Shown here one piece after another: positions 6,038-31,570 of a stretch of 31,570 bases of DNA. The stretch comes from an uncultured Gammaproteobacteria bacterium (GTDB lineage Bacteria; Patescibacteriota; Patescibacteriia; Patescibacteriales; UBA12465). The DNA is taken from contig CAYSIJ010000001.1 in assembly GCA_964431155.1 (NCBI GenBank), positions 30,130 through 61,699 on the forward strand, given 5' to 3'. Both the position numbers and the translations under genes were made by a program. The notes beneath the pieces are model-generated. The model was not told the origin of the DNA. It saw only the letters and a list, made by a program, of their open reading frames with translations, and searched no databases. Every line of letters starts with the position of its first letter. Position 1 is the stretch's first letter.

Positions 6038-6066
6038 ATTATAGTAAATTTATCAGAACTCTACAA
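6038..6066 (-). promoter_or_regulatory. Putative ftsA-ftsZ promoter
   Basis: TTGTAG-17 bp-TATAAT; the -35 overlaps the stop codon of the prepilin peptidase gene. Confidence 0.55.
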
Positions 6067-9073: not shown

Positions 9074-10261
9074 TTAGATATCTAACTGTTTTGTGACGGC
9101 GATTAAGCGTTCCCAGTAAATACCGCCTTTCTGTTTTTTGCTTAATTCTCTCCAGAGTTTTAGCTCTTTTGAACCTTCTTCTTCCTTTATTCTCGCCAAG
9201 AAAACTTTTCTAGCCAAATAACCAGCATCAATTATTTCTTTATTACCCGTAATTTGCACGGTTCCAGGATTTCCCTCAGAATCTACTAATGGCAAATTTA
9301 TTGGCTTTCTTGAAAAAATAGATTTTTGGAACACCGCTGCAGCAAGGTCTGCACCAGCCGCAAAAGCAAGCAATAGATGATTTTCTTCACTCATTTCTTG
9401 TTTCGCATAATGTTTCAACTCAGAGAAATAATCAAACATCGCCTCAATCGAAGTCCACTTTGACAAACTGCGGTGAGGAGTATCAATTATTTCTTGTGCT
9501 TCGGAAATTAAAGATTGAGAAATTTTGGCGAAATCTAAAAAACGATCTTCTAAGCCGTTCTCTTTGATTTTTGCAATTAATCTTTCCCAAAATATTTTTC
9601 CAAGTTTGGAGCCAACATATGGCGCTTCCAAATCAAAGGGAACAAGAATAACTTCGTCCACTTCTGCAATCGCTTTTACTAAAAGATCCAAATTGCTAAT
9701 TCCGGCATCATTTGTTTTGTCTGGAAACCTTTGAGCTAAAAACATGAGATCAAGAATTGGCTTAAATAACTTTTCAGTCATCACAAACCCAAATCTTCCA
9801 TTAACTTTCACAACTGGCGGCAAAGCACCAACTTCTTCGGCATTCCAAGAAACTTCTTGATTCAAATAACCGTCTGAATAATAGTGTGTCTGACTATCCA
9901 ACAACCAAAAATTGCGATTCGGTTTGGTTGGTGAGCAAAATTCTGGATAAAAAGAAACCGTTTGGTTTTTTATCCCATTTTCTTCCTGCCATTTCAAATG
10001 TTCGTCCGAAGTTAATGCGGGCAATACATGAGAAAATAATCCTCCTGAAAATTGCAAATTTTGATACTCCTGATATTTTCCCAACCAAGGATACATCAAA
10101 AAATCTAATTGATGGCAATTGATTGTCAGGTTTAAACCTGATTCTGCCAACACTCCCAAGCCTAATTCTTCGGCGTGGATTTTTTCAAAACTTTGCGGCA
10201 ACACATTGCCGTGAAATGAGTTGGTTGACGCAACCAACACGATTCCTCTTTCTTTTCCCAT
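9074..10261 (-). CDS. Cytoplasmic protein, probable divergent glycoside hydrolase family 57
   Basis: Ordered GH57-like segments: FHGN, SHVLPAL, FYPE (nucleophile-like), PFDLE (acid/base-like), RSLSKW. No signal peptide. Confidence 0.5.
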   Translation of the reverse strand: MGKERGIVLVASTNSFHGNVLPQSFEKIHAEELGLGVLAESGLNLTINCHQLDFLMYPWLGKYQEYQNLQFSGGLFSHVLPALTSDEHLKWQEENGIKNQTVSFYPEFCSPTKPNRNFWLLDSQTHYYSDGYLNQEVSWNAEEVGALPPVVKVNGRFGFVMTEKLFKPILDLMFLAQRFPDKTNDAGISNLDLLVKAIAEVDEVILVPFDLEAPYVGSKLGKIFWERLIAKIKENGLEDRFLDFAKISQSLISEAQEIIDTPHRSLSKWTSIEAMFDYFSELKHYAKQEMSEENHLLLAFAAGADLAAAVFQKSIFSRKPINLPLVDSEGNPGTVQITGNKEIIDAGYLARKVFLARIKEEEGSKELKLWRELSKKQKGGIYWERLIAVTKQLDI

Positions 10262-13656: not shown

Positions 13657-13672
13657 AAACGGTTCACCAGAT

Positions 13673-13702
13673 AAAAAACAACGTCTCCCGACGTTGTTTT
13701 TT
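13673..13702. terminator. Bidirectional terminator between clpP and the convergent surface-protein cluster
   Basis: aaaaaacaacgtc-tccc-gacgttgtttttt, a perfect 13-bp stem. Confidence 0.9.
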
Positions 13703-13722
13703 ATTTATTTCTGTTTTAAAAA

Positions 13723-14721
13723 TTATTTGACGTTTAATTTGAAGTTATCAATAATCATTTCAAACAAGCGGAAATAGTTGGCAGTATTCCCTTCAACTGC
13801 CCCGAGAGAAAAAACATAAATATTTTTCTTGGCCTGGTCACTCAAATAAAAAACCGTTTTGTCATTATTATAAACCCCCTGCCAAGAACCATCGGCCGCC
13901 GATTTGGCTTCTCCTGGCGCTTGATCGGGAAATTCCGCTTGATACCAATCCAAAATTGCTAAATTTTCTGGGTTCGTTTGATGAATAACTTGAATAAAAT
14001 AATTCTCATCCTCCGAAGAAACTAGAACCGTTTCATTGCCGTTTAGATTCTTCAACACCCAACTTTTTGGCTGGAGCAAAGAATATTTTAAAGAAGAATT
14101 GCGATAGACAACGAGATTAGAAGAAGATGCCAAGCGGCCGACGCCGGCTGGGTTATAGGAGTTCTGAAGCTCAATTAGATCAGCATTCCCGTCGCCATCT
14201 GAATCAATATTTTCTGGGTTGGAGCCGAGAAGTAATTCTTCGGCATCGCTCAAGCCATCGCCGTCAGTATCAGTCATTGATTCGGAAATAATTGTACTGG
14301 TGGCAACATCAACAATTACTGTACTTGTGGCGGGCGGAGTTTCAATTACGGCGACAGAAGAAGAATTCGTTTCTGGCGCTGGTACATTCAGATTTGTCTG
14401 GAGCTCATCCCCTTCAGTGTTTAGGCCAGAATTAATTTCGGAGGTAGTTTTTTCCTGAACTGTCTTTGGAGAAAGAGAAGGTTTGATTACCAAAACATAA
14501 GCTCCATAAACTAGCCCGGCAACCAACAAAACGCCGAGAGAAATAATTATTAGGCCAGTCTTTTTGTGGTTTCCTGAAGAAGGCGAAGATGTTTTATTGG
14601 TTAACGCTGAAGAGGAAAGGGGCGAAGGCATATTATGGACAATAAAATCCTGACTCAAGCGATTGCCCAAATCATTGCCCTTTTCACCTCCAATTGCTTG
14701 ATTTTTATCCTTGGAAAACAT
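13723..14721 (-). CDS. Single-pass membrane protein with S/T-rich linker, DxDxDG (bacterial TSP3-like) Ca-binding repeats and a PsbP-like C-terminal domain
   Basis: TM LIIISLGVLLVAGLVYGAYVLV; DTDGDGLSDAEE and DSDGDGNADLIE; C-domain begins YRNSSLKYSLLQPKSW. Confidence 0.75.
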   Translation of the reverse strand: MFSKDKNQAIGGEKGNDLGNRLSQDFIVHNMPSPLSSSALTNKTSSPSSGNHKKTGLIIISLGVLLVAGLVYGAYVLVIKPSLSPKTVQEKTTSEINSGLNTEGDELQTNLNVPAPETNSSSVAVIETPPATSTVIVDVATSTIISESMTDTDGDGLSDAEELLLGSNPENIDSDGDGNADLIELQNSYNPAGVGRLASSSNLVVYRNSSLKYSLLQPKSWVLKNLNGNETVLVSSEDENYFIQVIHQTNPENLAILDWYQAEFPDQAPGEAKSAADGSWQGVYNNDKTVFYLSDQAKKNIYVFSLGAVEGNTANYFRLFEMIIDNFKLNVK

Positions 14722-14723
14722 AA

Positions 14724-14876
14724 TTATTTAATGAAAAAACAAACCGCCACCAAGCTAATAGTTGAAACCCAAACAAAAAGCGTTAGATAAGCAGTATGAA
14801 GAGAAACTTTGCGATGCAATTGAGGCATCACGTGGATATAAATTGGTTTTGTCCAAATTGTTTGTTTGTTTCCCAT
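14724..14876 (-). CDS. 50-aa small membrane protein (not in the ORF track)
   Basis: MGNKQTIWTKPIYIHVMPQLHRKVSLHTAYLTLFVWVSTISLVAVCFFIK*. It fills the gap between neighbours exactly (5 and 2 bp spacers) and has a C-terminal hydrophobic helix. Confidence 0.6.
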   Translation of the reverse strand: MGNKQTIWTKPIYIHVMPQLHRKVSLHTAYLTLFVWVSTISLVAVCFFIK

Positions 14877-14881
14877 AAAAA

Positions 14882-15610
14882 TTATTTTACTGCGGTCGCT
14901 GGTAATTTACCGGCGCCATTTGGGTTGTAGCCCTTTTTAACTTCTGAGCCATCAGAATAAGTATCGCCGTCGGTATCAACTACCAAGGGATTAGTTAGAT
15001 AAGTTTTTACTTCTTCATAATCCGTGAGGCCGTCATTGTCGGTATCAACTTTATTAATGTCAGTACCGGCAAGCATTTCTTCTTGATCATTCAAGCCATC
15101 ACTGTCGGTATCAACGCTATCAGCTGTAACAACTGCCGGTATATTAACCGTGGAGGAACTGGTTTCCGTTGAAGAAGCTGTCGCAGGCTCAGTGGTCGTG
15201 GCTGCGATATTGTTATTTTCTTGTTCACTGATTTTAGCTTCCAAGGCAGCTTGGTCATTTTCATTAACTACTGGGATTGGATTGCTATTAATATTGGAAA
15301 CAACTTCAGCCTTTGGTTTGATAAACTGGGCATAAACAAAATAACCCGCAAAGGAAATAATCGCGGCAACGATTAGAAGGATTAAAAAAATCTTTAAAGC
15401 CTTGGTGCTCCGTTCACTAGCAGCCGGCATATTATCCTCAACATTCAAATAAGCTTCCCGGCTAGTACCAGACAGCGCTTGAGGAGAAACCGGGTTTTGA
15501 GTTGTAGGTACCGGGGCAGGTGGCGTCACTGGGGCACTGTCAACATCAGAAAAGATATCGTCAATTTCTTTTGCTCCCCCTTGGGAAGAGTTATTCTGGT
15601 CGTTAAACAT
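14882..15610 (-). CDS. Single-pass membrane protein with three DxDxDG (TSP3-like) Ca-binding repeats
   Basis: TM IFLILLIVAAIISFAGYFVY; DTDSDGLNDQEE, DTDNDGLTDYEE, DTDGDTYSDGSE, GYNP. Confidence 0.8.
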   Translation of the reverse strand: MFNDQNNSSQGGAKEIDDIFSDVDSAPVTPPAPVPTTQNPVSPQALSGTSREAYLNVEDNMPAASERSTKALKIFLILLIVAAIISFAGYFVYAQFIKPKAEVVSNINSNPIPVVNENDQAALEAKISEQENNNIAATTTEPATASSTETSSSTVNIPAVVTADSVDTDSDGLNDQEEMLAGTDINKVDTDNDGLTDYEEVKTYLTNPLVVDTDGDTYSDGSEVKKGYNPNGAGKLPATAVK

Positions 15611-15635
15611 AAAGAATCTTGTTATTTTTATTATT

Positions 15636-16058
15636 TTATTTTTTTATCTTAAAATTATCTTGGCAAGCGGTTTTAAATTCTTCATTGCTAATTTGATCAC
15701 AAATTTTTCCATCCCGCAAATCAGTCGCGAGACTCAGAAGACAAATAGAAGCACCATCTAGGTTCTGCATTTCTTGGCAACGACTGCTTTCTTTACTAGC
15801 TAATATTTCTTGGTACAAGGCTTTGTCATGCTTGGCTTTTTCAAGGCGAGCAGCTTCTTTTTGTCGCCATTTAGTAATTCCTTCATTCACTGGATAAAAT
15901 TTTTGCGCATTCTCCGGCTGTTTTGTTCCCAGTTGTTTTAGTTCTTCTTTCGGTTTATTTAACAAGCTAAAAAATAACCACGAGACTAAAGCGAAAAGCA
16001 GTAGCGCTCCGGAAATAATAATGATAAAACGATGCTGACGATTTTGCCAATTAATCAT
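15636..16058 (-). CDS. Membrane-anchored protein with a C-terminal 4-Cys helical repeat (140 aa, start revised to MINWQ)
   Basis: ATG 16058 lies 4 bp past the upstream stop and avoids a 53-bp overlap; N-terminal TM; C-terminal RCQEM...IC...ICDQI...AC. Confidence 0.7.
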   Translation of the reverse strand: MINWQNRQHRFIIIISGALLLFALVSWLFFSLLNKPKEELKQLGTKQPENAQKFYPVNEGITKWRQKEAARLEKAKHDKALYQEILASKESSRCQEMQNLDGASICLLSLATDLRDGKICDQISNEEFKTACQDNFKIKK

Positions 16059-16062
16059 AGGA

Positions 16063-19000
16063 TTAAAAATTATCACCGGAAATTTGGGTTGATAAATGAT
16101 AGATGAGATTACCAAAAATTTTATACTCTTCGGGCTTTAAAGCGGCGCCATTGTTATGCCCCAATTGAATTGAAGCGACGCGATTGCAAACACTTGCCCA
16201 GGAATAAGTTGGCGAAGTCGGAATATGGAAAATATTTGTTAATAAGGAGCTAGCTGCCGAACAAGCCGAACCGCCGCATTGCGGGCCACAAGCACTATTA
16301 GCCGCTTTCAATAAATAAGATGGCTGCCAAGTATTGACCGTAATGTTACCAGTAGAAAGCGAGAATATCTCTCTGGAATTATTGGCGTGAACAATCATGG
16401 TGGCATTTACTGGAGAAAAAGTATTGGGAACTGTCCCCGAATAGTCGCTGAAGATTGTTCCATTTAGAGTTTTCCCGCCAAAAACCACCATCCCACCATT
16501 TTTAATAAAGTTTTCTACTAAAACACGGGCCAAGGGATCAGGATAACTCAAATTATTTCCCATTCCGAAAACAATGAGGTTGTATTTTTCCAAAATATTT
16601 CCTACTGGTAAATATGAAGTTGGACTGGAATTAAACACATTCATCGACACTGTATCAACAGAATAATCTACCTGACCGGAAGTATCGTTATCAACAATAG
16701 CGACATTGTCCCGGAAAGAAGAATCGGTTGGATTATTTCCCAGAGTATTTAAAATGGCCTTAACGGAAATTGTATTTGCGGCTCCAGAACTATTTCCAGC
16801 ATAAACCTGAAGAATTTTTAATTGGCGAGCAATTTTACAACGATTATTGCAGTATTCTCCGAGATAGGCCTGGACTGAATATGGGTCGCCGGGATCGCAT
16901 TGTTCTCCCTGATTATTCTGGACTATTCCATCACCGCAATATGAACAATCCGTATGACAATATTGATTTGTATTAAAACCAGGATCATAAACTTCGTGAT
17001 CATCAGTGGTAAAAGTGCTATCTATGGAACCACAAATTCCATCGCCGCAATAGCCGCCGGTCGCTCGGCAATAATTGTTAGAAGTAATTGGATTTGGAGT
17101 AGTAGAACCAACGCCGGTGGTGCAAGAATACTGGCGAGAAGCCGAACTATCAGCCACATTGAGAGCGACTCCGCCGACACCGTCACACTCTTCCATTCCG
17201 TCATTATAAATTCCCCCTCTTTTTTCTTGATTCGGCGCCTGTTTAATTCCATCGCCGCAATAGCTATTAATCTTCAAAACGAAACTCTTGGTGGCAGAAG
17301 CACCGTATTCATTGGTCGCAGTAATGGTGATAGGAAATTCGCTTTGAGGCGCTGGGGTTGACGTACCCGTTGAAGTGTTTCTAGTTTCATCATATTCATC
17401 AAACCTGCTAGCATAATTAGCCTCTTCTTCAGAAGTAACGACTGAGAGATTGCCGCTCGTGTTATTTGTATCAAGTGCGGGGTTAGTTCTCTGAAAACAG
17501 ACTTGTTGTTTGGTTGCTTGCTGGTTAGCGGCTGGTGCGCCCAGAGATTCGGCGAAAGCCTCTTTGATTTGCAAAACATTCTTCGCCCAAGTAACAACTC
17601 TAAGGACTGGAGATAAAAGAGCGGAAGGAAGAATATTATTTTCCTCCTGCATTTCTTGTTGTTGGCTTTCTAATTGTGATTCTGCTTTCAAGATAACACT
17701 TTTCAAAACATCATCATATTTCTTAAAAAATGATTCTTGAAGAGTGGCTGCATTTTCCTGGTCATTTTCTGAAACAAATTTTTGATAGGATTGAGTGCTA
17801 CAAGGAAAATTACGGTTGATTGTCGGTGGAGTAGGAGGAACACCTAAGGCATTGCCGCTAATTCTCACCGTTCCAACCTTGCTGGGGTCAGTAGAGGTTG
17901 ATAAATTAGTTCCCGTCAAACCGGCAACTGAATAAGTAATATCGTGATCTTTGCTGTTTAAAAGTTTCACTACACAATCATAGGCCCCGAACTTTCGGAC
18001 ATTTTCTTCACATTGATAATCAAAAACTGGCTTATCTTGTTTTAAATTAATTATAAAATCTTTCACCGAGGAACCGCCTGATGAGTTGTTGAGAGTAACC
18101 CGATAATTTAAGACTTTATTTGAACCAGCAGGAACATCTATTCTTCCACTATTTTGAAAAATAGTGACCTTGAATCTGCCCCTTTCAATCTTTTCAATTT
18201 TTGACTCCAAGCCACTTGGTAAAATGCCGGATGAACCACCACTAAGAGACGGCCGTGTATAGCTTAAAGTGTAATTTGGAGTGCCGGAATCGGAAACTGA
18301 ATCATCATTCAAATAGAATGAATAACTTAATCTATTATTGTTCAAAATAAAATCGGAGTTTTCTGCCTCAATTTTTGGCTTTGACTTGCTAATGGTAATT
18401 TTAAAAACTTTGGTTTGCTGTCCGAGCCGATTGTCAGAAACCTTGATGCTAATTTCTGCCGCGCCAACAGTCAAAGCCTTTCTTGAATAAACTTTTTTCT
18501 GATTTGGATTATTAGTGTCAACCAAAGTGACGCCGCCATCAAAAATGCTTGCGCCCGATATCACCGAAAGCTCCCAGGTCAATGGGTTGCCGCTTGGATT
18601 TGCTACCTTGATAAAACCGCTAAACTCCTGACCGAGCTCGCCTTGAAGATTCGCCGCTTCAAAAACTGGGTTAACCGGAGAGGTTGGGGCATCAATTTTC
18701 ACACTACAAGCCCCCTGACTCAAAAGCCTGTCAACAGTATTATAATTATTCACCGAATCAGCACTACCGTGAGTCTCCATTGAGGCACACAAACTATATT
18801 TGGCGCCACTATTTTCTGATTGATAAGCCATGACTAAACTATTATTCGGAAACTCTAGTGGATTAGTTTTAGCGGCAAAAGTGCTTAGGTTTTTATTCCA
18901 ACAGGTGACAGCATCAAAACCTGGGCATTGGCCTAGTTTGTTAACTGGATCAACTAATGATTTATCAAGACCTAATTGAGCACCAAAAGTACTCTGCCAG

Positions 19001-19719
19001 CTTGGCCAAGTAGAAATAGTTAGATGAGGGAGATAACTACCTGATGGTAAATCCGGAAAACGACCGTTTTTTTCTTGATAATTTTTTAAGGATTCTTTTA
19101 TCTCAGCCAAAACTGACAAACGTTTTACATCGCGGGTAATTTTGGCTTTTAAGCTATCGCAAAATCCCTTGCCAAGACAATCGCCATCAACCAAACAAGT
19201 GGAGGTTGCCGCCACCGTAATCGCACACTTTCCAGGAGCCGCTAAATTATTATTGAATTTCCAATTAGCAATAATCTGGCCGAGCGCATCGGTGGTGCCA
19301 GGCTTTGAATCTTGGTTATAAGAGATTAGATAAATGTTGGTGTGAATGATATTTCCTAAAACATTGGTGGCATTAACATAAACTGTCCGGCCATCGCGGA
19401 TTGCTTCATAGCCATCAACAATCAAAAATTGCGGCGATCCGGAAAAACCTTTTTCGCGATACCAGCGTTCAATTCCATAATGCTCATCGTTTGGCAGAAT
19501 TCTAATTGCCACCGCATCCAAACTTTCACCTGATACGGCCTGAAAATGATCACTAGCATCAACGGCGGAATCTATCTCAGCTGCAGTCTGGTCGGCAGCC
19601 TGGCAAGGATTATTTACCAAGAAGAAACAACTGACAACCAACAAAAATAACCCAGCTGACAACAAAAAAGGCTGGTAATTTTTACCTCTATTAAACCGCT
19701 GGAACATTATTGGTTTCAT
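16063..19719 (-). CDS. 1218-aa secreted Cys-rich surface protein: pilin-like helix, Ig-like repeats, CGDG (DUF4215/Myxococcus Cys-rich-like) repeats, C-terminal class-I-GATase-like fold
   Basis: Signal peptide ending CQA; RDVKRLSVLAEIKESLKNYQEKNGRFP; three YCGDGI repeats; LKILQVY...YNLIVFG...FIKNGGMVVFG. Confidence 0.7.
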   Translation of the reverse strand: MKPIMFQRFNRGKNYQPFLLSAGLFLLVVSCFFLVNNPCQAADQTAAEIDSAVDASDHFQAVSGESLDAVAIRILPNDEHYGIERWYREKGFSGSPQFLIVDGYEAIRDGRTVYVNATNVLGNIIHTNIYLISYNQDSKPGTTDALGQIIANWKFNNNLAAPGKCAITVAATSTCLVDGDCLGKGFCDSLKAKITRDVKRLSVLAEIKESLKNYQEKNGRFPDLPSGSYLPHLTISTWPSWQSTFGAQLGLDKSLVDPVNKLGQCPGFDAVTCWNKNLSTFAAKTNPLEFPNNSLVMAYQSENSGAKYSLCASMETHGSADSVNNYNTVDRLLSQGACSVKIDAPTSPVNPVFEAANLQGELGQEFSGFIKVANPSGNPLTWELSVISGASIFDGGVTLVDTNNPNQKKVYSRKALTVGAAEISIKVSDNRLGQQTKVFKITISKSKPKIEAENSDFILNNNRLSYSFYLNDDSVSDSGTPNYTLSYTRPSLSGGSSGILPSGLESKIEKIERGRFKVTIFQNSGRIDVPAGSNKVLNYRVTLNNSSGGSSVKDFIINLKQDKPVFDYQCEENVRKFGAYDCVVKLLNSKDHDITYSVAGLTGTNLSTSTDPSKVGTVRISGNALGVPPTPPTINRNFPCSTQSYQKFVSENDQENAATLQESFFKKYDDVLKSVILKAESQLESQQQEMQEENNILPSALLSPVLRVVTWAKNVLQIKEAFAESLGAPAANQQATKQQVCFQRTNPALDTNNTSGNLSVVTSEEEANYASRFDEYDETRNTSTGTSTPAPQSEFPITITATNEYGASATKSFVLKINSYCGDGIKQAPNQEKRGGIYNDGMEECDGVGGVALNVADSSASRQYSCTTGVGSTTPNPITSNNYCRATGGYCGDGICGSIDSTFTTDDHEVYDPGFNTNQYCHTDCSYCGDGIVQNNQGEQCDPGDPYSVQAYLGEYCNNRCKIARQLKILQVYAGNSSGAANTISVKAILNTLGNNPTDSSFRDNVAIVDNDTSGQVDYSVDTVSMNVFNSSPTSYLPVGNILEKYNLIVFGMGNNLSYPDPLARVLVENFIKNGGMVVFGGKTLNGTIFSDYSGTVPNTFSPVNATMIVHANNSREIFSLSTGNITVNTWQPSYLLKAANSACGPQCGGSACSAASSLLTNIFHIPTSPTYSWASVCNRVASIQLGHNNGAALKPEEYKIFGNLIYHLSTQISGDNF

Positions 19720-19747
19720 ATTTTCAAGAAAAAATTAAGTTAAGATA

Positions 19748-19756
19748 ATTATACCA
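19748..19756 (-). promoter_or_regulatory. Internal extended -10 promoter upstream of the 1218-aa gene
   Basis: TGgTATAAT immediately after the stop codon of the 1862-aa gene. Confidence 0.55.
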
Positions 19757-19760
19757 CAAA

Positions 19761-22700
19761 TTATTTATTACTGAAAAAATAATATTCTTTTAAAATATCC
19801 CAGATGCATAAACCGCCGGAACAATTGGCGTCCGAAGAACAAGACTGAGCATTGTTATTACTACAAACCTTACTTGGACTTTTTGGAATAGCACTCTCGG
19901 AAATTTCCGGCAAATCATCACTTGTACCTGGCTTCCCCGCATCGCGACAATAATAAAAATCGTAATTAAAAGGATTGTTCGCGAAATTATTTTTATCACG
20001 CCACGGTGCCCAAGTGCCATCGGATTTTATTCTTGGCCAAGGATTCGCGCAAATAAAGACAAACAGCTCAGAACTGGATTTTTCTCCATTACCGCCGAAA
20101 TATTGATTACCGGTGGACATTTCCACGGTGGAATAAAGCAAAGTCTTGCCATCGTTAATTTTGTCAGCCGCAGTCGCAATAATTTTATTAGCCATTAATG
20201 AAACAGTAGTTGTAGAAATTAAGGAAGGATTTTCTGATTTGAATACCCAGGTCCAATTATAGCCAGTAACAGGATTTAATAGTTGATCATCAATACTATA
20301 AGCATTGGCTTCAAAAACTTTGTCACGATCACGCCTGGAATCAAACGAGGCATTTCCAGGGGTGTCATCAGCTGAATCATTGGCGGCCGTGGAAAACAAG
20401 TATTGATTAGGGACTAAGGTTGTATAATCAATTTCACAAATATCAGCTCTGGTGGTAAAAGTACTGACAAAAGCCTTGTATAGGTTATTGTTTATTTTTG
20501 CTTTAATTGCTCCTTGGTAAAACCCGCTATCTTGAGGCTGGCTAGCATATTTTTTGATATTCTGATCTATAACTTCGCCTATCTCTTCCCTTCTGATATT
20601 TAAATCACCTAGCTCCATAGAAAAATCTTGGACGTCAAGTTCCAGGCTAGACTTTAACATTTTAGAGCGAATTTCTCTTATCTTTTTCTTTAATTCTTCT
20701 AGCTCTTCAATTTGTGTTCCTAAATCCTTCCAGTTTGCGCCATTGACAGCTTTGGCAATCATCAAACCTGTATTATTTCTCCGTTTTTCTGCTTCATCCA
20801 ACAGATCATTAGTTGCTAAGATTTCGTTAAAATTTTTATTGATTTCGGCATCAGAAACTTTTTTCTGATAATTTTTAATCTGATTCTCGTACTCTTTTAA
20901 GTCACTATGGAGAACCTGAAAATCTGCTGTTGAAAAACCGGAATCATCCACAACACTCATCCCAACACCATCGCCACTCAAAACACCGTCCGCCGGAGAA
21001 TTTTCCTGGTTATTTCCCCTGACAAAAATTAAATATTTTTGACCACTCTTGAGCACAGCTTTTGGCTTAATAAGCGCAACTGTGGTCGTGGCAAAGTTTT
21101 TCACCCGATCCACAGCTTCAACATTGATGGGGACTTGGCAATAAGTATGATTAGCGGTATTGTCAGCCAAGGCTTTGTCTTTCTTGAAAATATTAAAAAA
21201 TGAAATAATTATTTTTTCAACACCCTGATAGGCTTTGACAAAAATATTTTCTTTTAAATTATCGGCTGCCAAAGGGGTGCTAGTCGGACACTTGAAGCCG
21301 GCCACATGCTCTTCCAAAAGTTTTACATTATTACTATTAAGACTGGTGCCAATCATGATGCGATCAAAATTGATTTGAAGAGCAGCGTTTCGGCAAACTC
21401 CAGTGCTGTCAGCAGCCGGGGAAACGCCGCTGATTGTTGGCTTGGGATAGCAACAAGAATCCACACCACAACCACTTAGACCAACCCCGCCGGGATTACA
21501 TTCACCATCATTAGAGCAACCACAACAAAGACCGCGTGAAGCACCACTGCAGTCTCCTTTGTTGGAAAGGCAGGATAATTTTGAATTGATTGCTTTGCAA
21601 GCGGTATCCGTTTTTGGATTACAACAGCAAACCCCACATTCACCGCCTGCTGAAGGCGCTGCGGAAGTTATTGTTCCGCCAGTGGAAGTTAGGCAAGAAA
21701 GATTTGACGTGGCGCCAAAAACCCCGGAACAAATTGAAGTATCGCATGTATAATTATTAGTGGTTTTCCCGGCAGTGCCACAACTTAGACCCAGGCCAGT
21801 GTTGCCGCCCGATGGTTTACAATTAGCTTCGCAAGCTGTGATGGAAGAATAGGTGCCATTTCTTCCAGGAGTACTGGAAGCACATTTATTATTTTCTGTA
21901 ATTGCATTATTTGGATCAGAGCAATTGTAATAAGCGCAATATCCTGGATCACTAGGAATTAAATTTCCAACACCACCGCGACAGACTGGCCCACCAGTCG
22001 CCTTGGCATCCAAACAGCAAACGGAAGAATGCGCCATGCATTCATCAGTGTCCAAAGTAGCACAATCGACGCAAGCACCGGTCGGGAAAGCCCCAGAAGT
22101 CGCACAGAACTGACCATTGTGACCTGAACAGTTGCAGGCAGCATCTCTGGAGTCAGTGTCGGCTCCGGCCGCAAAGCAACCAGAACATTTGCCAAATCCC
22201 GAATTGTCAGTTGGATTGGTATCAGAACCGCAAGTTCCACCACAAGTTAATGGCGCACAGCAATCTTGGTTACCATTGCTAATTTGGCAACAACATTCGC
22301 AAGAAGGTGCTTCGTCAATAACACACTCCCCCGAGGAATTACAAGTCTCTCCGCCTTTACATTGCAAATCAATTTTACATTTTCCCTCTAAGCATTTTTC
22401 TGTATTCTCACACAATGAACAATTATTACTAGTTTTTAGATCTACAGTGGAGGCACCTTTAGCGCAAAGGCCGCCATTTATTTTTATCCAACCATTGATA
22501 CAAGTGGTGTTTGAGCTATAAACTAGACGTTGGCGATTTTCATATTCTGGTAAAACTTTACAGAAAGAGCCTATTTTTTCTGTGTCGCTACAAATTTTTT
22601 CTGGATTTTTAATGCAACTGCCGTTAACGACAGAATAACCACTCGGACAACAAGGTCCTTTTGGCGCCGCGACTACTGTTGAACCGGAAGAACATTTACC

Positions 22701-25349
22701 AGGCACATTTGGACAAGTGCTACTAGTTTGGCAGGAGCCAACTTCTTTGGAAACACCGAGGCAGCTATCAAAAGTGCTAGGTGGAGGAGTAGTGGGATTT
22801 GTGATATCTATTGTCCCGAGTTTAGTGCTAAAAGCCCATTCAAAAACTGAATTTTTAACATCACCCACACAATCAGCAAGATCGCTCACACACTGGCCTT
22901 TCAAAGAAGTGGTTACTGGACAACAAAATTTTCCCGACGAGCAATCGGAATTTTTTCCGCAAGCACCAACTTGAAAATTAACTGGGTTACTATCCTCTAA
23001 TCTTACTAACCCGGAAACCGCGGCGGCAGGAACAAGCACTTCTGCTTTATTAGTTTTATTGCTAATTGAAATTGTAGAAGCAGCAGCAATTGAATTAAAA
23101 TAAACCTTCACGGCAGAACCACTTGATCCAAAATTTTCTCCAAAAAGTGTTGTCGTGGAATTTGCCGGACCGCGGCTAGGATCAATTTTACAAATTCCTG
23201 GTTTCAATTTTTCATTAGAATCAAAATAAAAAGATAGGTTGTTTGAGGAAGAATGCATTTCCCAGGAATCAGTTTTGATCATTACATCGCTTTTTTGCGG
23301 ATTAATTCCGTCAGGAGCTTTAACAAGAATCTGCTTATCCGACCAGAGATCGGCCGCACATTCGCTTGGAAAAGTATAAACCGCTTCTTTACTACCGAAA
23401 AACACTTTGCCATTTCCACGGTTATCACCAAAATTACTGCCGCTGATTGTAACATATTGTCCTACTGGACCTCTATCGGGAGAAATCGCCGAAATATTTG
23501 GAGCCGCGGGAAGATCGTTCAGCTTTTCAAAAAATAAAAAATTACTTTTTGGTTTTCCATTGCTGACAAAAATACTATTATTACCAACTGCCAAAACAGG
23601 AACGGCGGCACTAGCCTTGGTGTCACTAGCAAATTTTCCCTGACCATTAAGATTTTTTTGATAATCACCAAAAAATACCGAACCATTGCCAAAGTTATTT
23701 CCAAAAAGAGAAATAACTTCGTTGGTCTGCGCAGCGCTTGGCGACAACCTGCAAAGACCAGGACGAGAAATCCCATTCTTTAAAAAATCTTTAATTTTTG
23801 GTCCATTGTCGTCATCTGTCGTTTCTATTTCATTGAACCGCGACCGGATTTCAATTTTGCCGTTTTGGACATCATCAGGAACGACGACAATAATTTGATT
23901 AGCACTGAAACTTGAACATTGGGAATATATTTCCGAGGCAGTTTTAACTGTTACTCCGCCGATAGTAATTGAGCGTCCAGCGGTTTCATCAACAATTTTC
24001 AGATCATCAATAAACAAGGAAGTCCCGTTGCCAGTCGGCCCACCAACCAAAACAAAACGCATTTTTGGGCTCCCAATTTTTGGCGAATTACCAAGTGAAA
24101 AAAATATTGTTCTTTGGTTGCTATATTGTCCTGGGATAATCTCAGTGATTTTTTTGTCATCAAAATAAATTTCTAAACGATTAGTTAGTTCCCCTTCAAA
24201 AGTAATTTGCCCACCGTACTGACGACCATCTTGAAAACCAACTTTTTCCAGATCATAAAAAACTTCGGCATTGGCATCAGTGCCATCAACATTCCCTGGT
24301 TTCTGCCAGAAAAGTAACGACATAGACTCTTTAATCGGCGTTTTTGCAAAAGAAATTTTAGCCGCATCGCCGGCTTTCAAATCGCCAAAATTGGGACTGC
24401 CAATGCTTCCGCCCTCAGGATAGCTATCAAATTTTTCCTCAAAAATTTCCTTACCTGATGGCTTATTAAAATTTTTACCAAGAATCGTTAAAAGATTTCC
24501 TGGCTTGCCATTTGGCGTAATGGTGTTACAAGTGGAACTTGGGCAGTCAGCATTTGTGTCACAAGGCCTGTTATAATTATTTTCACAAAAACCGCCCGCC
24601 GGGCTAACACTCAAAATAGTAATTGGCCCCTCACAAACACAAGAACCAGTATTACAGGTTAAACCATCAGCGCAATTATTTCCATTAACATCGCAGGAGC
24701 CGTCTTCTTTAAAACCGCAAGAATCACCCGATTGGCTTTTGTCTTCACATAAGCAATTATTATTACAAATCTTATCCGGTGAACCGCAAAGATTGTCGTT
24801 TGGTGTGCAAGAACCCAAATTAGAACCACCATTGCAGCTTATTGGGGTAGACGTTGAGTTTGTACAATCATAACCTGAACAAGTCGGATTACCACCGTCG
24901 CAGACAATATGCCCACCGCAGAAACAAGGGGTGCCGGCCACGCAAGCTCCTCCCGGATAAATGGAATTACCACCATTATTGCCATCGCCTAATAACCTAT
25001 TAATTACAAAATAAGCGATTCCCCAGGCGGATAAAATAATAATTAAACCAATTAAACCAGATCTTAGAATTTTTTTTGCTTTGGTGATTTGTTCTTCACT
25101 ACCATTACTCTTCATCCAAACAAACCCTCCCCAAAGAATAATACTAACGGCAATAATTCCCAAAAACATCAATGAGAGGTTGATAATTCGGACCGCCATA
25201 TCACGCGGGTCACTCGCTGATAAGTTTATGTCGGCTCCTACTTGGTCCACCCCAGTATCAACCGTGGTTGCAGCCAAAGCCAAACGAGCGCCAAAAAGCA
25301 CAGTAAAACAAAAAATCGCGCTTAATAAAATTTTACTAGATTTTTTCAT
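19761..25349 (-). CDS. 1862-aa surface protein: N-terminal TrbC/VirB2-like (T4SS-type) pilin, Cys-rich modules, IPT/TIG repeats, SbsA-like Ig domain
   Basis: MAVRIINLSLMFLGIIAVSIILWGGFVWMKSNGSEEQITKAKKILRSGLIGLIIILSAWGI (pilin hairpin); repeated (I/L)SPxxG..TLxGxNFG TIG starts; ISGVSPAADSTGVCRNAALQINFD; dozens of Cys. Confidence 0.8.
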   Translation of the reverse strand: MKKSSKILLSAIFCFTVLFGARLALAATTVDTGVDQVGADINLSASDPRDMAVRIINLSLMFLGIIAVSIILWGGFVWMKSNGSEEQITKAKKILRSGLIGLIIILSAWGIAYFVINRLLGDGNNGGNSIYPGGACVAGTPCFCGGHIVCDGGNPTCSGYDCTNSTSTPISCNGGSNLGSCTPNDNLCGSPDKICNNNCLCEDKSQSGDSCGFKEDGSCDVNGNNCADGLTCNTGSCVCEGPITILSVSPAGGFCENNYNRPCDTNADCPSSTCNTITPNGKPGNLLTILGKNFNKPSGKEIFEEKFDSYPEGGSIGSPNFGDLKAGDAAKISFAKTPIKESMSLLFWQKPGNVDGTDANAEVFYDLEKVGFQDGRQYGGQITFEGELTNRLEIYFDDKKITEIIPGQYSNQRTIFFSLGNSPKIGSPKMRFVLVGGPTGNGTSLFIDDLKIVDETAGRSITIGGVTVKTASEIYSQCSSFSANQIIVVVPDDVQNGKIEIRSRFNEIETTDDDNGPKIKDFLKNGISRPGLCRLSPSAAQTNEVISLFGNNFGNGSVFFGDYQKNLNGQGKFASDTKASAAVPVLAVGNNSIFVSNGKPKSNFLFFEKLNDLPAAPNISAISPDRGPVGQYVTISGSNFGDNRGNGKVFFGSKEAVYTFPSECAADLWSDKQILVKAPDGINPQKSDVMIKTDSWEMHSSSNNLSFYFDSNEKLKPGICKIDPSRGPANSTTTLFGENFGSSGSAVKVYFNSIAAASTISISNKTNKAEVLVPAAAVSGLVRLEDSNPVNFQVGACGKNSDCSSGKFCCPVTTSLKGQCVSDLADCVGDVKNSVFEWAFSTKLGTIDITNPTTPPPSTFDSCLGVSKEVGSCQTSSTCPNVPGKCSSGSTVVAAPKGPCCPSGYSVVNGSCIKNPEKICSDTEKIGSFCKVLPEYENRQRLVYSSNTTCINGWIKINGGLCAKGASTVDLKTSNNCSLCENTEKCLEGKCKIDLQCKGGETCNSSGECVIDEAPSCECCCQISNGNQDCCAPLTCGGTCGSDTNPTDNSGFGKCSGCFAAGADTDSRDAACNCSGHNGQFCATSGAFPTGACVDCATLDTDECMAHSSVCCLDAKATGGPVCRGGVGNLIPSDPGYCAYYNCSDPNNAITENNKCASSTPGRNGTYSSITACEANCKPSGGNTGLGLSCGTAGKTTNNYTCDTSICSGVFGATSNLSCLTSTGGTITSAAPSAGGECGVCCCNPKTDTACKAINSKLSCLSNKGDCSGASRGLCCGCSNDGECNPGGVGLSGCGVDSCCYPKPTISGVSPAADSTGVCRNAALQINFDRIMIGTSLNSNNVKLLEEHVAGFKCPTSTPLAADNLKENIFVKAYQGVEKIIISFFNIFKKDKALADNTANHTYCQVPINVEAVDRVKNFATTTVALIKPKAVLKSGQKYLIFVRGNNQENSPADGVLSGDGVGMSVVDDSGFSTADFQVLHSDLKEYENQIKNYQKKVSDAEINKNFNEILATNDLLDEAEKRRNNTGLMIAKAVNGANWKDLGTQIEELEELKKKIREIRSKMLKSSLELDVQDFSMELGDLNIRREEIGEVIDQNIKKYASQPQDSGFYQGAIKAKINNNLYKAFVSTFTTRADICEIDYTTLVPNQYLFSTAANDSADDTPGNASFDSRRDRDKVFEANAYSIDDQLLNPVTGYNWTWVFKSENPSLISTTTVSLMANKIIATAADKINDGKTLLYSTVEMSTGNQYFGGNGEKSSSELFVFICANPWPRIKSDGTWAPWRDKNNFANNPFNYDFYYCRDAGKPGTSDDLPEISESAIPKSPSKVCSNNNAQSCSSDANCSGGLCIWDILKEYYFFSNK

Positions 25350-25367
25350 AAAATAATTTCTGGAAAT

Positions 25368-27968
25368 TTATTTACAATTACCATCCGCATCCAAGCCCGT
25401 TGCATTGCTAACCGGAACATCAAAACAACAGGAAGGGCTAACCGCAGAAGCAGGGCAAGAATCACTGCCACTCGGTTTGAAACAATTTTGATAAATATCA
25501 CGAATACCCGATCCAGCCTGAGCATTAAAAGCGCTAGATTCGGAAAATACAGAATGATTAATTTTAATAGTCGTTTGGTCTAATACTCCATTATCGCCAG
25601 CGGACTTGTTAAACGAAGAAACCCAATAACCAGCCGGATTACCAAAACTGCGGATATTTAAAAACTTGTGCTCTACATCGCCTTTGCCATTGTTTATTAT
25701 TTTTGAACCAGTGACCAAGCTAGCATTCAACATTAACCGAGAAAATTCAATCGTAATCGGAACATTGAGATCGGCACCACTCACATTATTTTCCGGAGAA
25801 ATTGTCCTGATAATCGGGGCAGTGGTTTCCATTTGATCGCTAATGAAGAATGACCACTGGAAATTATCTTTTTTGTTTTTGTCGCCCACATTTTCATTAA
25901 AAATATCTACTGGCCCATCAGAAAAAGTATCGCGATTTCCATCAAATGAATTACTGGAAGCATCAAAAATTCCTTTCAAAGAAAGAACATTGGCGGCTGG
26001 ATAAAACTTTCCGGCAGAATTTGCGCAAGATTTGTGGGATAAGGCTGAGAGATTATTACAGTTGCTAAAAGGCGCCTTCGTTCCACAAGCCGTGTTATCG
26101 CTACAATTTTCTAAATCAGCGGCAATTAATTCAACTTTCAAATTAGAATTAGCGGGCAAGCAATAAATTTTTTCACCACAACCATTCACGCCACATTGAT
26201 TATCTGATAAAAATTCTAGAGTCTTATAATCGCTAGAAAGTGTGAAATTTCCCGTAACTGGCTGACCATCATTAATATTAATTACCCGGATTGTGCTGCT
26301 CACAAAATTTGATGGCCCAGCAATTGTGAGGGGATTTATTTCTTTGCTAAAATTGATTTGAATTGCTGAATTCATTGGCTGATCAGGCTTGCCACCACCA
26401 GGATTCAAGGTTTTGCCACCATCCGCTCCACCAGAAAACGGTGTTATTTTGAAAGTGCCTGAGCGAGCAGATGAAAGAGAAATATCATTCCCCTGAGCAC
26501 CAGGCTTGGCAATAATGGTTAGGACATTGCCGCTAATAGCGACGTCTTTGAATTCATTAAAAACAGCAGGGTTCTCCAAAAATGCTTTCACCTTGCTGAC
26601 AGTTTCTGCTAAAGTGCCTGCCTGGTTGATACTTAAATTTCGACCGCCAACAGTTAAAATATCGGCTGGATAAGGTTTATTTAATTTTATCTTCCAAGAA
26701 TTTCCAGCAACTACTTTATCTATTTTAAAGCTGAAAAAATTTGGAAAGCTGACCAGATATTCATTTCCTTGCTTCACGGGTTGCGCCGCACCACGCGATT
26801 TTCCGCCGGCAGAAATCACAAAAACATTTCCCGAATCAACACTCACTTCAAAAACATCTCCTGGGTCGTTGGAAATCTCTTGGTAGTTATTACTCATTAC
26901 GAAAGAGCTGGAATCGAGACTTGAGGAATTTCCTCCTGGCGTTGAGGTGAAGGAAGCTTCTTTTTCTGGGCCCATTGCTCTTACGATTTCAATTTTGGCA
27001 ATTGCTGAAGAGCCGACCCTCTGAGCGAAAGAATCCTGTTGATTATCAACGGGAGGAAAAACGCCTTGAGAAACAACTATTGGCGGCACCAAATCAATCA
27101 GGCCATTAACTGAAAAATTCCATTCCAGATAATTGGGCTGGCATTTACTAAAAATATTTTCTCCTCTTAGATTTTTGATTTGATTGGTGAAGCGGACCCC
27201 ATAAGGAACCGCTACATTGGCCTCGCCAAGATATTCCTGAGGAAGAATGACAATAGTTTTTTTGTCATAAGACAGGCCGACTGTTGCCTTGGTCAAATTG
27301 GTGTTGTTGGTGTTGCAACCGCTGGCGCCACAGGCATTGCCGGCTTCTTTTTTGAAAATTTGAATCGCTTCCGGGTTGAGTTTGTTGCAAGCCGTTGAAC
27401 AAGCACAAGCATTACCGCTATCGTTTTTGCAAATGGATTCTGGGGCAACCTCTTCCTTGAAGGTCACCATGATTGAGGAATTTCGCGGCACATTGGATTT
27501 TTCAGCACTTGGAAAAAAATTTTCCACCACGCAAGCACCAACGGCACCAAGGCCGACTTGATAATTCTGGCCGCCAGTCGTGTCTACGCCTGAACCAGAG
27601 CCAGAACCACTGCCAGTCAATCTTCTCAAAATAAAAGCAGCAATTCCCCAAGCGGACAAAATAATAATTAAACCAATCAAAGCATTTTTCAGAATTTTCT
27701 TTGCGGTCGCAATCCGGTCTTCATTGCCATTACTAGTCATCCACACAAAACCGCCATAGATAACGAGCGACACCGCAATAATCCCCAAAAACATCAGGGC
27801 AAAATTGATAATCTTCACGGCCATCACTATCGGACTCGTGTCGCTCAAGGCAATAGTAGCACCGACTTGGTCTACCCCCGTATCAACTGCCGCAAAAACA
27901 AAAACCGCTGGCAAGAAAAAAGCCATCCCGAATAAAAAACCGACTAGCAATTTAAAACTTTTTTTCAT
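25368..27968 (-). CDS. 866-aa surface protein: N-terminal TrbC/VirB2-like pilin plus three SbsA-like (Big_5) Ig domains
   Basis: Pilin hairpin paralogous to that of the 1862-aa gene; VPRNSSIMVTFKEEV, PMNSAIQINFSKEINP and ADLNVPITIEFSRLM Ig-domain starts. Confidence 0.8.
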   Translation of the reverse strand: MKKSFKLLVGFLFGMAFFLPAVFVFAAVDTGVDQVGATIALSDTSPIVMAVKIINFALMFLGIIAVSLVIYGGFVWMTSNGNEDRIATAKKILKNALIGLIIILSAWGIAAFILRRLTGSGSGSGSGVDTTGGQNYQVGLGAVGACVVENFFPSAEKSNVPRNSSIMVTFKEEVAPESICKNDSGNACACSTACNKLNPEAIQIFKKEAGNACGASGCNTNNTNLTKATVGLSYDKKTIVILPQEYLGEANVAVPYGVRFTNQIKNLRGENIFSKCQPNYLEWNFSVNGLIDLVPPIVVSQGVFPPVDNQQDSFAQRVGSSAIAKIEIVRAMGPEKEASFTSTPGGNSSSLDSSSFVMSNNYQEISNDPGDVFEVSVDSGNVFVISAGGKSRGAAQPVKQGNEYLVSFPNFFSFKIDKVVAGNSWKIKLNKPYPADILTVGGRNLSINQAGTLAETVSKVKAFLENPAVFNEFKDVAISGNVLTIIAKPGAQGNDISLSSARSGTFKITPFSGGADGGKTLNPGGGKPDQPMNSAIQINFSKEINPLTIAGPSNFVSSTIRVININDGQPVTGNFTLSSDYKTLEFLSDNQCGVNGCGEKIYCLPANSNLKVELIAADLENCSDNTACGTKAPFSNCNNLSALSHKSCANSAGKFYPAANVLSLKGIFDASSNSFDGNRDTFSDGPVDIFNENVGDKNKKDNFQWSFFISDQMETTAPIIRTISPENNVSGADLNVPITIEFSRLMLNASLVTGSKIINNGKGDVEHKFLNIRSFGNPAGYWVSSFNKSAGDNGVLDQTTIKINHSVFSESSAFNAQAGSGIRDIYQNCFKPSGSDSCPASAVSPSCCFDVPVSNATGLDADGNCK

Positions 27969-28110: not shown

Positions 28111-28139
28111 ATTTTAACATAAAAAACTAAATTCGTGAA
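28111..28139 (-). promoter_or_regulatory. Putative promoter of the pilin-adhesin cluster
   Basis: TTCACG-17 bp-TAAAAT, with an extended -10 (TGtTAAAAT). Confidence 0.5.
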
Positions 28140-30305: not shown

Positions 30306-31570
30306 CTAAATGTGTTTAATAATATTTATTAACTTGCTTTCATTATTGCTTAAATCTATTTTTTTTGCAAGTTTTTCCTTTATTTTTTTAATTGGCACGA
30401 TTTCTTGAACGGTTGAATCCATGTCCCGCATCAAAATAGTTTCATCCATTACTTCTTTTTTGCCCATAATTAAAGAAATTTTTGCCTTCACGCGCACTGC
30501 CTCTTCCATTTGGGTTTTTAGACTGTCTGTGGAAAAAGACTGGCGAATTTTGAAACCAGCTTGACGCAATTCATCAAATAATTGCAAAGATTTCAATTTT
30601 GCCGGATCACTTAATTGGGCGATAAAAACCAAGTTATCTTCCGCGTTTGGCAGAGGATAATGCCTATCACGCATTTTCAAGGCTGTTCTTTCAAGCCCAA
30701 TAGCTAGCCCGACTGCAGGAGATGGCTTTCCTCCCATATTTTCCACTAAAGAATCACAACGGCCACCGCCCGCCAAAGCATATTTACCTTGAGCAACGCC
30801 AGCATCATTGATTGGCCAGAATTCAAAAACAGCGTCATTGTAATAATTCAAACCACGTACCAAGAAAGGATTAAAGTTATAAGGAATATCTAATTCATCC
30901 AAATATTCACAGATTTTTTTGAAATGGTCGCGGCTTTCATCGGACCAAAAATCAGCAATTTGCGGGGCTTCTTCTCTTAATTTTACACAACCCTCTTCTT
31001 TGCAGTCCAAGAGGCTCAAGACATTTTTCAGGAGGTTTTGTTTGCAATGATGGCAAACTTTGGACTTCCGACCGCGCTCCCGATAAAAAGCCGAGAGTTT
31101 GTGACTATATTCTTTCCGGCAATCGGCGCCGCCCAAGCTGTTAATTTGCACCTGGATATCAATTCCTAAATCCTTAAAATAATGAAAGGCCAAACTAATA
31201 ATCATTGCTTCGGCAATCGGCTTTTTGTCTTTGATAATTTCTAAATCAAATTGCGTAAATTGCCGCTGAGAATTATTCTGCAATTTTTCGTTGCGAAAAA
31301 CCGAGCCGATAGAAAAAACGCGCAATGGTGATTCTATTTCATCTAATTTCTGTTCAATATAGTGCCGAACGATTCCCTGAGTTAATTCTGGGCGCAGGCA
31401 CATTCTTTCATTTTTTTCACCAATTAAAGCGTAGAGTTCTTTTTCACTGGATTTTCTGGTGCTTTTTTTGTATAAATCAATATTTTCCAAAATTGGCGTT
31501 TCCAAATGATCAAAACCATAACAAGCACAAAGCTCCTCCGCCTTGCGGCGAGCAATGTCAAAATATTGGC
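30306..31570 (-). CDS. hisS: Histidyl-tRNA synthetase-like protein, 5' partial (frame open to the window edge)
   Basis: The frame extends upstream of 31505 (QYFDIARRKAEELCACYGFDHLETPILE). Motifs LRPELT, FRNE..RQFTQ, LVRGLNYY, GGGRCD, GLER, plus a C-terminal anticodon-binding domain. Confidence 0.85.
   Translation of the reverse strand, partial: QYFDIARRKAEELCACYGFDHLETPILENIDLYKKSTRKSSEKELYALIGEKNERMCLRPELTQGIVRHYIEQKLDEIESPLRVFSIGSVFRNEKLQNNSQRQFTQFDLEIIKDKKPIAEAMIISLAFHYFKDLGIDIQVQINSLGGADCRKEYSHKLSAFYRERGRKSKVCHHCKQNLLKNVLSLLDCKEEGCVKLREEAPQIADFWSDESRDHFKKICEYLDELDIPYNFNPFLVRGLNYYNDAVFEFWPINDAGVAQGKYALAGGGRCDSLVENMGGKPSPAVGLAIGLERTALKMRDRHYPLPNAEDNLVFIAQLSDPAKLKSLQLFDELRQAGFKIRQSFSTDSLKTQMEEAVRVKAKISLIMGKKEVMDETILMRDMDSTVQEIVPIKKIKEKLAKKIDLSNNESKLINIIKHI

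Follow-up and report, generated by a model that had tools for sequence, protein, structure and literature searches.

A large share of uncultured bacterial diversity belongs to the Patescibacteria, of which those that have been cultivated live attached to host cells. Proteins of the family PF18895 are treated as VirB2-like pilins of the Patescibacterial type IV secretion system (T4SS); their genes occur in arrays of 2 to 11, and both the system and its pilins are essential in Southlakia epibionticum, the sole species tested (PMC12102498, PMC10633639, PMC12857230). Adjacency of these genes to virB4 is not strict, a pilin gene close to virB4 having been recorded for only 1135 of the 1948 assemblies surveyed (PMC12102498). 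Even the small pilins of Patescibacteria are not yet known to polymerize into a T4SS-dependent pilus (PMC12857230), and a survey of Patescibacterial T4SSs published in 2025 found no adhesins in T4SS loci and left fused pilins unmentioned (PMC12102498). Here we describe a block of seven minus-strand open reading frames (ORFs), at positions 13723 to 27968 of a 31.6-kb window (the whole stretch of DNA that was analyzed, 31,570 nucleotides of contig CAYSIJ010000001.1), that is bounded by relA and clpP, both on the plus strand. The ORFs are named g1 to g7 in the order of their transcription (Table 1). The products of g1 and g2 carry two bona fide PF18895 pilin domains fused to giant passengers of the extracellular type, and they are most likely modular VirB2-like pilins through which binding modules are exposed at the cell surface. 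Our preferred reading, which we hold only tentatively, is that their hairpins are still pilin-like and that both proteins join a T4SS pilus or pilin platform as minor or terminal subunits, with g3 docked on the assembly and g4 to g7 serving as its scaffold.

The match of g1 and g2 to Pfam family PF18895 (T4SS_pilin) lies above the gathering score of 26.6 bits (33.4 and 31.4 bits, respectively), and the first 130 residues of the two proteins are 58% identical. A first-pass annotation of the same DNA had described their N-termini as paralogous hairpins of the T4SS pilin type fused to long passengers, a description borne out by these matches and by those to a hidden Markov model (HMM) built from stand-alone pilins, according to which the pilin domain opens every g1 and g2 orthologue, with E values of 1e-31 to 1e-44. 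Hydropathy and AlphaFold2 (AF2) place a signal-peptide helix at residues 2 to 24, a nonhelical segment of 20 residues, and then the hairpin (helices at residues 46 to 77 and 83 to 119), and the features by which membership of the family can be recognized, a Sec-type signal peptide, two hydrophobic helices, and a short polar loop, are found in both proteins. Both align in register with stand-alone Patescibacterial pilins of about 128 aa; all of the family-invariant Gly, Phe, and Ala positions are present, and the polar motifs DP(R), W-M-T-x-G-N-E-D, and A-K-K are kept. The stand-alone pilins described in the literature (PMC10633639, PMC12102498, PMC12857230) have the same signal peptide, two-helix hairpin, and motifs, and in their arrays divergent pilin paralogues lie side by side, as do g1 and g2 here. 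In contrast to the described pilins, which measure about 113 to 150 aa, and to stand-alone relatives of 113 to 140 aa, g1 and g2 continue for 740 to 1740 aa and do not share the small, single-domain build; whereas stand-alone pilins end 8 to 12 residues past helix 2, g1 and g2 run on into a linker directly after that helix (GSGSGSGSG or GDGNNGGNS) and from there into the passenger. Nor is the locus adjacent to virB4, unlike the PF18895 genes that lie beside T4SS genes.

Canonical VirB2/TrbC pilins, such as VirB2 of Agrobacterium tumefaciens (PDB 8cue and 8exh), show the same layout of a long signal peptide, helix 1, a short polar or basic loop, and helix 2, but the loop of the g1/g2 family has 8 additional residues, no cyclization is in evidence, the host is monoderm, and the hairpin bears a giant C-terminal passenger. 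Matches to the TrbC/VirB2 family PF04956 at an E value of ≤0.1 were obtained for 15 of 34 members of PF18895 (best E value, 1.1e-4), with none for g1 and g2 themselves in the Pfam scan, and an hhalign comparison with A. tumefaciens VirB2, the sequence of which was verified against PDB 8cue, gave an E value of 7e-4, a probability of 26%, and 56 in-register columns. The NCBIfam model NF045849, a pilin-like protein of a Mycoplasma integrative and conjugative element (ICE), scored 28.9 bits with g1 and 27.9 bits with g2, below its cutoff of 40. The link between PF18895 and canonical VirB2 is, at the level of sequence, real but weak.

The best functional analogy for g1 and g2 is with the modular type IV pilins PilB and PilC of Streptococcus sanguinis, in which a polymerizing pilin is fused to a bulky module (vWA or lectin) and the filament itself is the adhesin (PMC8179133, PMC9934059). 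Those pilins belong to an unrelated superfamily and carry a class III signal peptide that is cut by prepilin peptidase, a motif that g1 to g3 lack, and the passengers of g1 and g2 are up to tenfold larger than theirs. Processing of the type IV pilin kind was ruled out for all seven proteins, as no prepilin-peptidase motif is present: Pfam gave no N_methyl match, and no class III signal peptide motif occurs in g1 to g7. The Trw T4SS of Bartonella provides a second parallel, a T4SS and pilus repurposed for attachment, with diversified pilin paralogues; there, multiple variant copies of VirB2 and VirB5 serve host-specific adhesion, but the pilins stay small and the variation is achieved through gene copies (PMC12857230). 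In the "extended VirB6" proteins, a T4SS membrane subunit has been lengthened by large, hydrophilic, extracellular domains, but the extended subunit is VirB6 and not the pilin (PMC12857230). The PrgB-type adhesins of Gram-positive conjugation systems are likewise large, immunoglobulin-like (Ig-like) surface adhesins that accompany a monoderm T4SS; they are anchored by LPxTG and sortase, whereas g1 and g2 are held by the pilin hairpin and have no PrgB-like domain. Sortase anchoring was ruled out, since the proteins of the cluster contain no LPxTG motif; the Pfam and NCBIfam scans yielded no PrgB-like domain in any of them.

The architecture is not confined to this contig. An alignment of g3 was scanned against one genome per GTDB species, which gave 32 loci, and the proteins of the window were compared by BLAST with the ORFs of these loci. 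The order relA(-)/g1/g2/g3/(g4)/g5/(g6)/g7/clpP(-)/secD/secF is kept in about 25 species-level metagenome-assembled genomes (MAGs), labeled Falkowbacteria, Patescibacteria, or Parcubacteria, while the identity of g1 across the syntenic loci falls from 64% to 36%. Synteny over this range of genomes indicates that the block did not come together by chance, and its genes are conserved as a set, the lack of which the first-pass annotation had named as grounds for refutation. Large ABY1 contigs that bear the operon include OW818634.1 (895,742 bp), ERZ21878242 contig_1 (911 kb), and CAYUCS010000001.1 (772 kb). Four loci lack g1, and in two others g1 stands alone and is followed by recA. More-distant variants consist of a pilin-Big_5 protein of 517 to 612 aa, a giant protein of 2666 to 2887 aa, and a TSP3 protein; in one of them (L041), the giant protein has a pilin domain and TIG domains. 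In L041 and a further distant locus (L040), the module lies after hisS-S21-YqeY and includes no separate g3, which may have been fused into the giant protein or lost. More than 60 clusters of g1 orthologues, 830 to 920 aa in length, carry the combination of PF18895 and Big_5.

Pilin fusions with giant passengers are frequent. An exhaustive phmmer search, in which the pilin domain of g1 was compared with 1.84 billion cluster representatives, returned 27,123 matches at an E value of ≤1e-3. Among the best 150 representatives, a sample biased toward relatives of the g1 query, a single pilin domain, invariably located in the first 50 residues, occurs in 113 proteins, of which 80 are longer than 500 aa and 14 longer than 2,500 aa, with a maximum of 3,737 aa. 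The pilin domains of long proteins have nearest neighbors that also belong to long proteins in 113 of 137 cases, and the stand-alone pilins form a separate clade. The closest stand-alone pilins (JGI 3300026162) are encoded by six tandem genes of 127 to 147 aa; a seventh lies some 5 kb upstream, next to an SBP_bac_1 gene, and no virB4 was found within 10 kb of this array. Fused VirB2-like pilins were not found in the literature searched, and NCBI names some of the fused proteins simply "pilin." The remaining 37 of the best 150 representatives have a different build, with 2 to 11 tandem PF18895 domains in one polypeptide ("polypilins," with examples of 555, 820, and 1147 aa), and no mention of such tandem-pilin polypeptides was found in the literature searched.

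The passenger of g1 comprises about 740 aa with three Big_5 domains, and the protein contains 20 Cys residues; that of g2, about 1740 aa, has three or four TIG domains (residues 538 to 798) and a weak match to Big_5. Cysteine is most abundant in g2, where 103 residues (5.5%) are concentrated at positions 100 to 300 and 800 to 1300, against 2.3 to 2.5% in g1 and g3. A Pfam scan of passenger segments added only TIG and Big_5 and assigned no family to about 60% of g2 or to the C terminus of g3. Once the signal peptide has been cleaved, the hairpin would sit in the membrane with its N terminus out, its two helices spanning the bilayer, and its C terminus out, as in VirB2 propilins, and the passengers of both proteins are therefore predicted to be outside the cell. 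This topology is consistent with their Cys-rich, Ig-like makeup and agrees with the extracellular location proposed earlier. Passengers so placed could in principle be released: the hairpin would then serve as a signal for targeting or export, and cleavage at the Gly-rich linker would set the passengers free as soluble effectors or toxins against host cells. The flexible linker directly after helix 2 would suit such cleavage, and the T4SSs of other bacteria do export proteins (PMC12857230), but g1 and g2 already possess Sec signal peptides, their passengers are built from Ig-like stalk modules in which no enzyme or toxin domain was detected, and the operon encodes no protease. We consider release of this kind very improbable.

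We return to the reading that we tentatively prefer, in which the hairpins of g1 and g2 have remained pilins in function. The operon of this Falkowbacteria-like Patescibacterium (class ABY1) would build a display module at the cell surface; the hairpin would have been retained because it still does pilin work, joining the membrane pilin pool, and a T4SS whose genes lie elsewhere in the genome would incorporate g1 and g2, either in low stoichiometry or at the tip. The large binding modules would then be carried by the pilus or by a pilin platform at its base, and the likely role would be attachment to a host cell or substrate; both the filament role and the host-attachment role of the two proteins are inferences. 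F pili display peptides that have been fused to the C terminus of F-pilin. The hairpin is the most constrained segment, with a mean identity of 63 to 65% in g1 and 62% in g2, compared with 13 to 60% and 2 to 55% for the respective passengers, in both of which lineage-specific inserts are present; this constraint exceeds that needed by a plain anchor. One genome that encodes a g1 orthologue, HGW-Falkowbacteria-2, is VirB4 positive in Table S1 of PMC12102498, as are most Falkowbacteria (GTDB class ABY1) in that table.

Several observations weigh against this proposal. The window contains no VirB4 or other T4SS ATPase, as had been noted at the first reading, and VirB4, VirB6, and other T4SS genes are likewise absent both from it and from within 10 kb of more than 30 related loci. 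When the family profile was compared with PDB sequences, no solved VirB2 or TraA was retrieved at an E value of ≤10, so that homology to the canonical pilins cannot be claimed from that search, and a Foldseek comparison of the AF2 hairpin model with the PDB returned generic helical hairpins only, all with E values of ≥2, a search that cannot tell two-helix folds apart. A packed filament of the VirB2 type has no steric room for a passenger of 750 to 1750 aa on each subunit, and g1 and g2 could thus at best be rare or terminal subunits. Some genomes keep g1 only or g2 only, and the core, syntenic location among housekeeping genes fits a structural role in the envelope as well as it fits host-specific adhesion. 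The absence of nearby T4SS genes, the bulk of the passengers, and the housekeeping neighborhood would all be expected if the pilin hairpin had been exapted as a two-helix membrane anchor, with g1 and g2 being ordinary adhesins or other surface proteins tethered to the membrane, which would take no part in any pilus and function independently of a T4SS; moreover, as the cluster proteins of these monoderms bear no LPxTG/sortase signal, another type of anchor is needed. We regard this explanation as possible, although simple anchors usually drift, whereas here the hairpin is the most conserved segment, its polar loop motifs and the pre-helix DP motif are kept, and the fused domains still fall within the pilin family in the HMM comparison described above.

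In the preferred reading of g1 and g2 as pilus or platform subunits, g3 would be a secreted partner, the conserved N-terminal module of which docks on the assembly while a swappable C-terminal payload adds binding specificity. It has neither a pilin hairpin nor a membrane anchor beyond its signal peptide. The N-terminal module is common to more than 511 proteins, in which the C-terminal halves vary, with He_PIG, FISUMP, vWA, CarboxypepD_reg, beta-helix, and dickkopf-like modules. The AF2 model of residues 44 to 620 (predicted local distance difference test [pLDDT], 84) resolves into a beta domain, a helix of 29 residues with strands after it, and Ig-like domains. Two features had been ascribed to g3 at the first reading. 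The CGDG repeats are confirmed, three motifs starting at residues 821, 891, and 928; the internal helix of the type IV pilin kind was not established, T2SSG being the most frequent Pfam match of residues ~185 to 345 but found in 3 of 18 family members with a best E value of 0.037, and a PDB profile search with the putative pilin-head subdomain giving no match. A type IV pilin-like domain in g3 is thus weakly supported. Foldseek matches of the N-terminal module are dominated by tandem Ig-like domains, among them those of titin, SraP, RTX adhesin, antigen I/II, and SbsB.

The presence of the S-layer protein SbsB alongside adhesins in that list is compatible with a further explanation, that the large Ig-like and Cys-rich proteins form an S-layer-like complex tied to the membrane by the TSP3 proteins and serve envelope integrity or shape rather than host attachment. 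This function would suit a vertically inherited core locus whose place between relA and clpP-secDF is fixed in the lineage, and it would also suit proteins that combine Ca-binding TSP3 repeats with conserved cytoplasmic tails. The g3 family, however, exchanges its C-terminal payloads (lectin-like FISUMP, vWA, He_PIG), and g1 and g2 contain hypervariable inserts, both of which are typical of ligand-binding proteins and not of lattice proteins, and gene content differs by lineage, with g1 only or g2 only in some; on balance, we find an envelope scaffold improbable. Elsewhere, contig CAYUCS010000001.1 (772 kb) bears three tandem g3-like paralogues and TSP3-like proteins at a different locus that has no pilin-fusion gene, which indicates that the g3 module also works outside the g1-to-g7 operon.

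In the reading that we favor, the small proteins g4 to g7, bitopic in the membrane and bearing conserved cytoplasmic motifs and Ca-binding TSP3 repeats, would form a scaffold that spans the membrane and wall. The expectation from the first pass, three smaller membrane proteins with Ca or Cys features and a 50-aa peptide, proved correct: g5 and g7 match TSP3_bac (PF18884) with 49.2 and 31.3 bits (cutoff, 25), each with two DxDxDG motifs and no Cys at all, g4 has its four Cys residues, and g6 is a real, conserved peptide. A counterpart of g6 (58 to 73 aa with ORF-based starts, bearing the motif and a C-terminal transmembrane [TM] helix) is present in 17 of 23 loci in which the gap between g5 and g7 could be examined, and a small ORF occupies the position of g4 in 19 of 23 loci with examinable gaps. 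The sequence at the latter position changes from a Cys-containing form, "CQEMQNLDG," in close relatives to "EFLT..EK...K.QVL.R..G..VYKVIK" in distant ones, which could be either replacement or extreme divergence. Orthologues of g5 share the N-terminal motif MFNDLN..(V/I)DDIFA(E/D)TD. In g6 and g7, a related cytoplasmic motif stands just before the TM helix, [IL]H[VT]MP[QKR] in the former and D-x-[IV]-V-H-N-M-P in the latter, a layout reminiscent of PilN-type proteins with their short cytoplasmic docking motif.

The covalent fusion of a pilin domain with giant Ig-like and Cys-rich modules would directly qualify as a candidate for the missing host contact of Patescibacteria, and it would be the first case in which the modular-pilin principle, known from type IV pili, appears in the unrelated family of T4SS pilins. 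A broader proposition is that a large, undescribed class of "modular VirB2 pilins," with passengers of 0.5 to 3.7 kaa, supplies the adhesin or tip components still missing from the essential T4SS pilus of Patescibacteria and sets host specificity, with g1 to g7 as the dedicated assembly and docking module in ABY1/Falkowbacteria; in this general form, we think it rather unlikely. The locus provides specific protein targets to seek on filaments and a conserved seven-gene set that can be used as a phylogenomic marker.

Table 1. Positions in the window of the seven genes, their principal domains, and the candidate transcription signals
Feature	Position	Strand	Description
g1	25368..27968	-	866 aa; signal peptide (aa 1-26), VirB2-like hairpin, GSGSGSGSG linker, three Big_5 Ig-like domains, Cys-containing C terminus
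g1 pilin hairpin	27612..27839	-	aa 44-119; most conserved segment of g1; AF2 pLDDT of ~90 for both helices
g2	19761..25349	-	1862 aa; signal peptide, VirB2-like hairpin, Cys-rich regions, TIG array, Big_5-like domain, lineage-specific coiled-coil insert, conserved C-terminal domain
g2 pilin hairpin	24987..25202	-	aa 50-121; paralogous to g1 hairpin; most conserved segment of g2
g2 IPT/TIG domain array	22956..23738	-	aa ~538-798
g3	16063..19719	-	1218 aa; Sec-secreted; conserved N-terminal module and variable C-terminal payload
g3 conserved N-terminal module	17920..19542	-	aa ~60-600; beta domain, long helix with beta sheet and conserved disulfides (possibly pilin-head-like), Ig-like domains
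g3 Cys-rich "YCGDG" repeats	16915..17259	-	three repeats, aa 821-935; nearly invariant across family
g4	15636..16058	-	140 aa from ATG ("MINWQ"); bitopic, TM helix at aa 8-36, 4 Cys
g5	14882..15610	-	242 aa; conserved cytoplasmic N terminus (MFND..DDIF..D), one TM helix, extracellular TSP3 Ca-binding repeats
g6	14724..14876	-	50-aa tail-anchored peptide; conserved motif [IL]H[VT]MP[QKR] before TM helix
g7	13723..14721	-	332 aa; paralogue of g5; cytoplasmic "IVHNMP" motif, one TM helix, TSP3 repeats, C-terminal globular domain
Candidate operon promoter	28111..28139	-	sigma-70-like, upstream of g1; consensus match 9/12, extended -10 TG; match only, not proof of function
Hairpin	13669..13706		17-bp stem between convergent g7 and clpP; likely bidirectional terminator closing the operon

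The seven genes form an operon-like block. All seven ORFs are present in the co-oriented, tightly spaced arrangement that the first-pass annotation had reported (gaps of 2 to 41 bp), with intergenic gaps from g1 to g7 of 18, 41, 4, 25, 5, and 2 bp in turn, and the promoter-like site before g1 and the hairpin after g7 fit a single transcription unit. The window as a whole is a housekeeping stretch of a Patescibacterial (candidate phyla radiation [CPR]) chromosome; its other genes encode NrdR, a helix-turn-helix-phosphoribosyltransferase (HTH-PRTase) protein, FtsZ, FtsA, a prepilin peptidase, a Wzy_C/tetratricopeptide repeat (TPR) protein, SecD, SecF, ClpP, RelA/SpoT, and HisRS, and no tRNA gene was found in it. 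An origin from a mobile element or ICE was ruled out by the housekeeping flanks in conserved order, the absence of a relaxase or integrase, and the lack of tRNA genes in the window; the locus belongs to the vertically inherited core, has housekeeping genes as its neighbors, and is not an accessory island.

Outside the operon, the gene for a prepilin peptidase (A24, PilD; positions 6061 to 6861) adjoins that for a 707-aa membrane protein with Wzy_C (O-antigen-ligase-like) and TPR domains (6865 to 8988), and the two may constitute a pilin glycosylation pair of a type IV pilus system. Between the Wzy_C protein and SecF lies a conserved protein of 395 aa (9074 to 10261) that belongs to no Pfam family and is also encoded in a sister contig. 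Several public MAGs in which the locus is clearly Patescibacterial are titled "uncultured Gammaproteobacteria" (TPA_asm records), which looks like a taxonomic mislabel. The HisRS ORF (30306 to 31505) specifies 399 aa from a TTG start, compared with 445 to 468 aa in orthologues, and may reflect an upstream in-frame stop or a mischosen start near the edge of the window.

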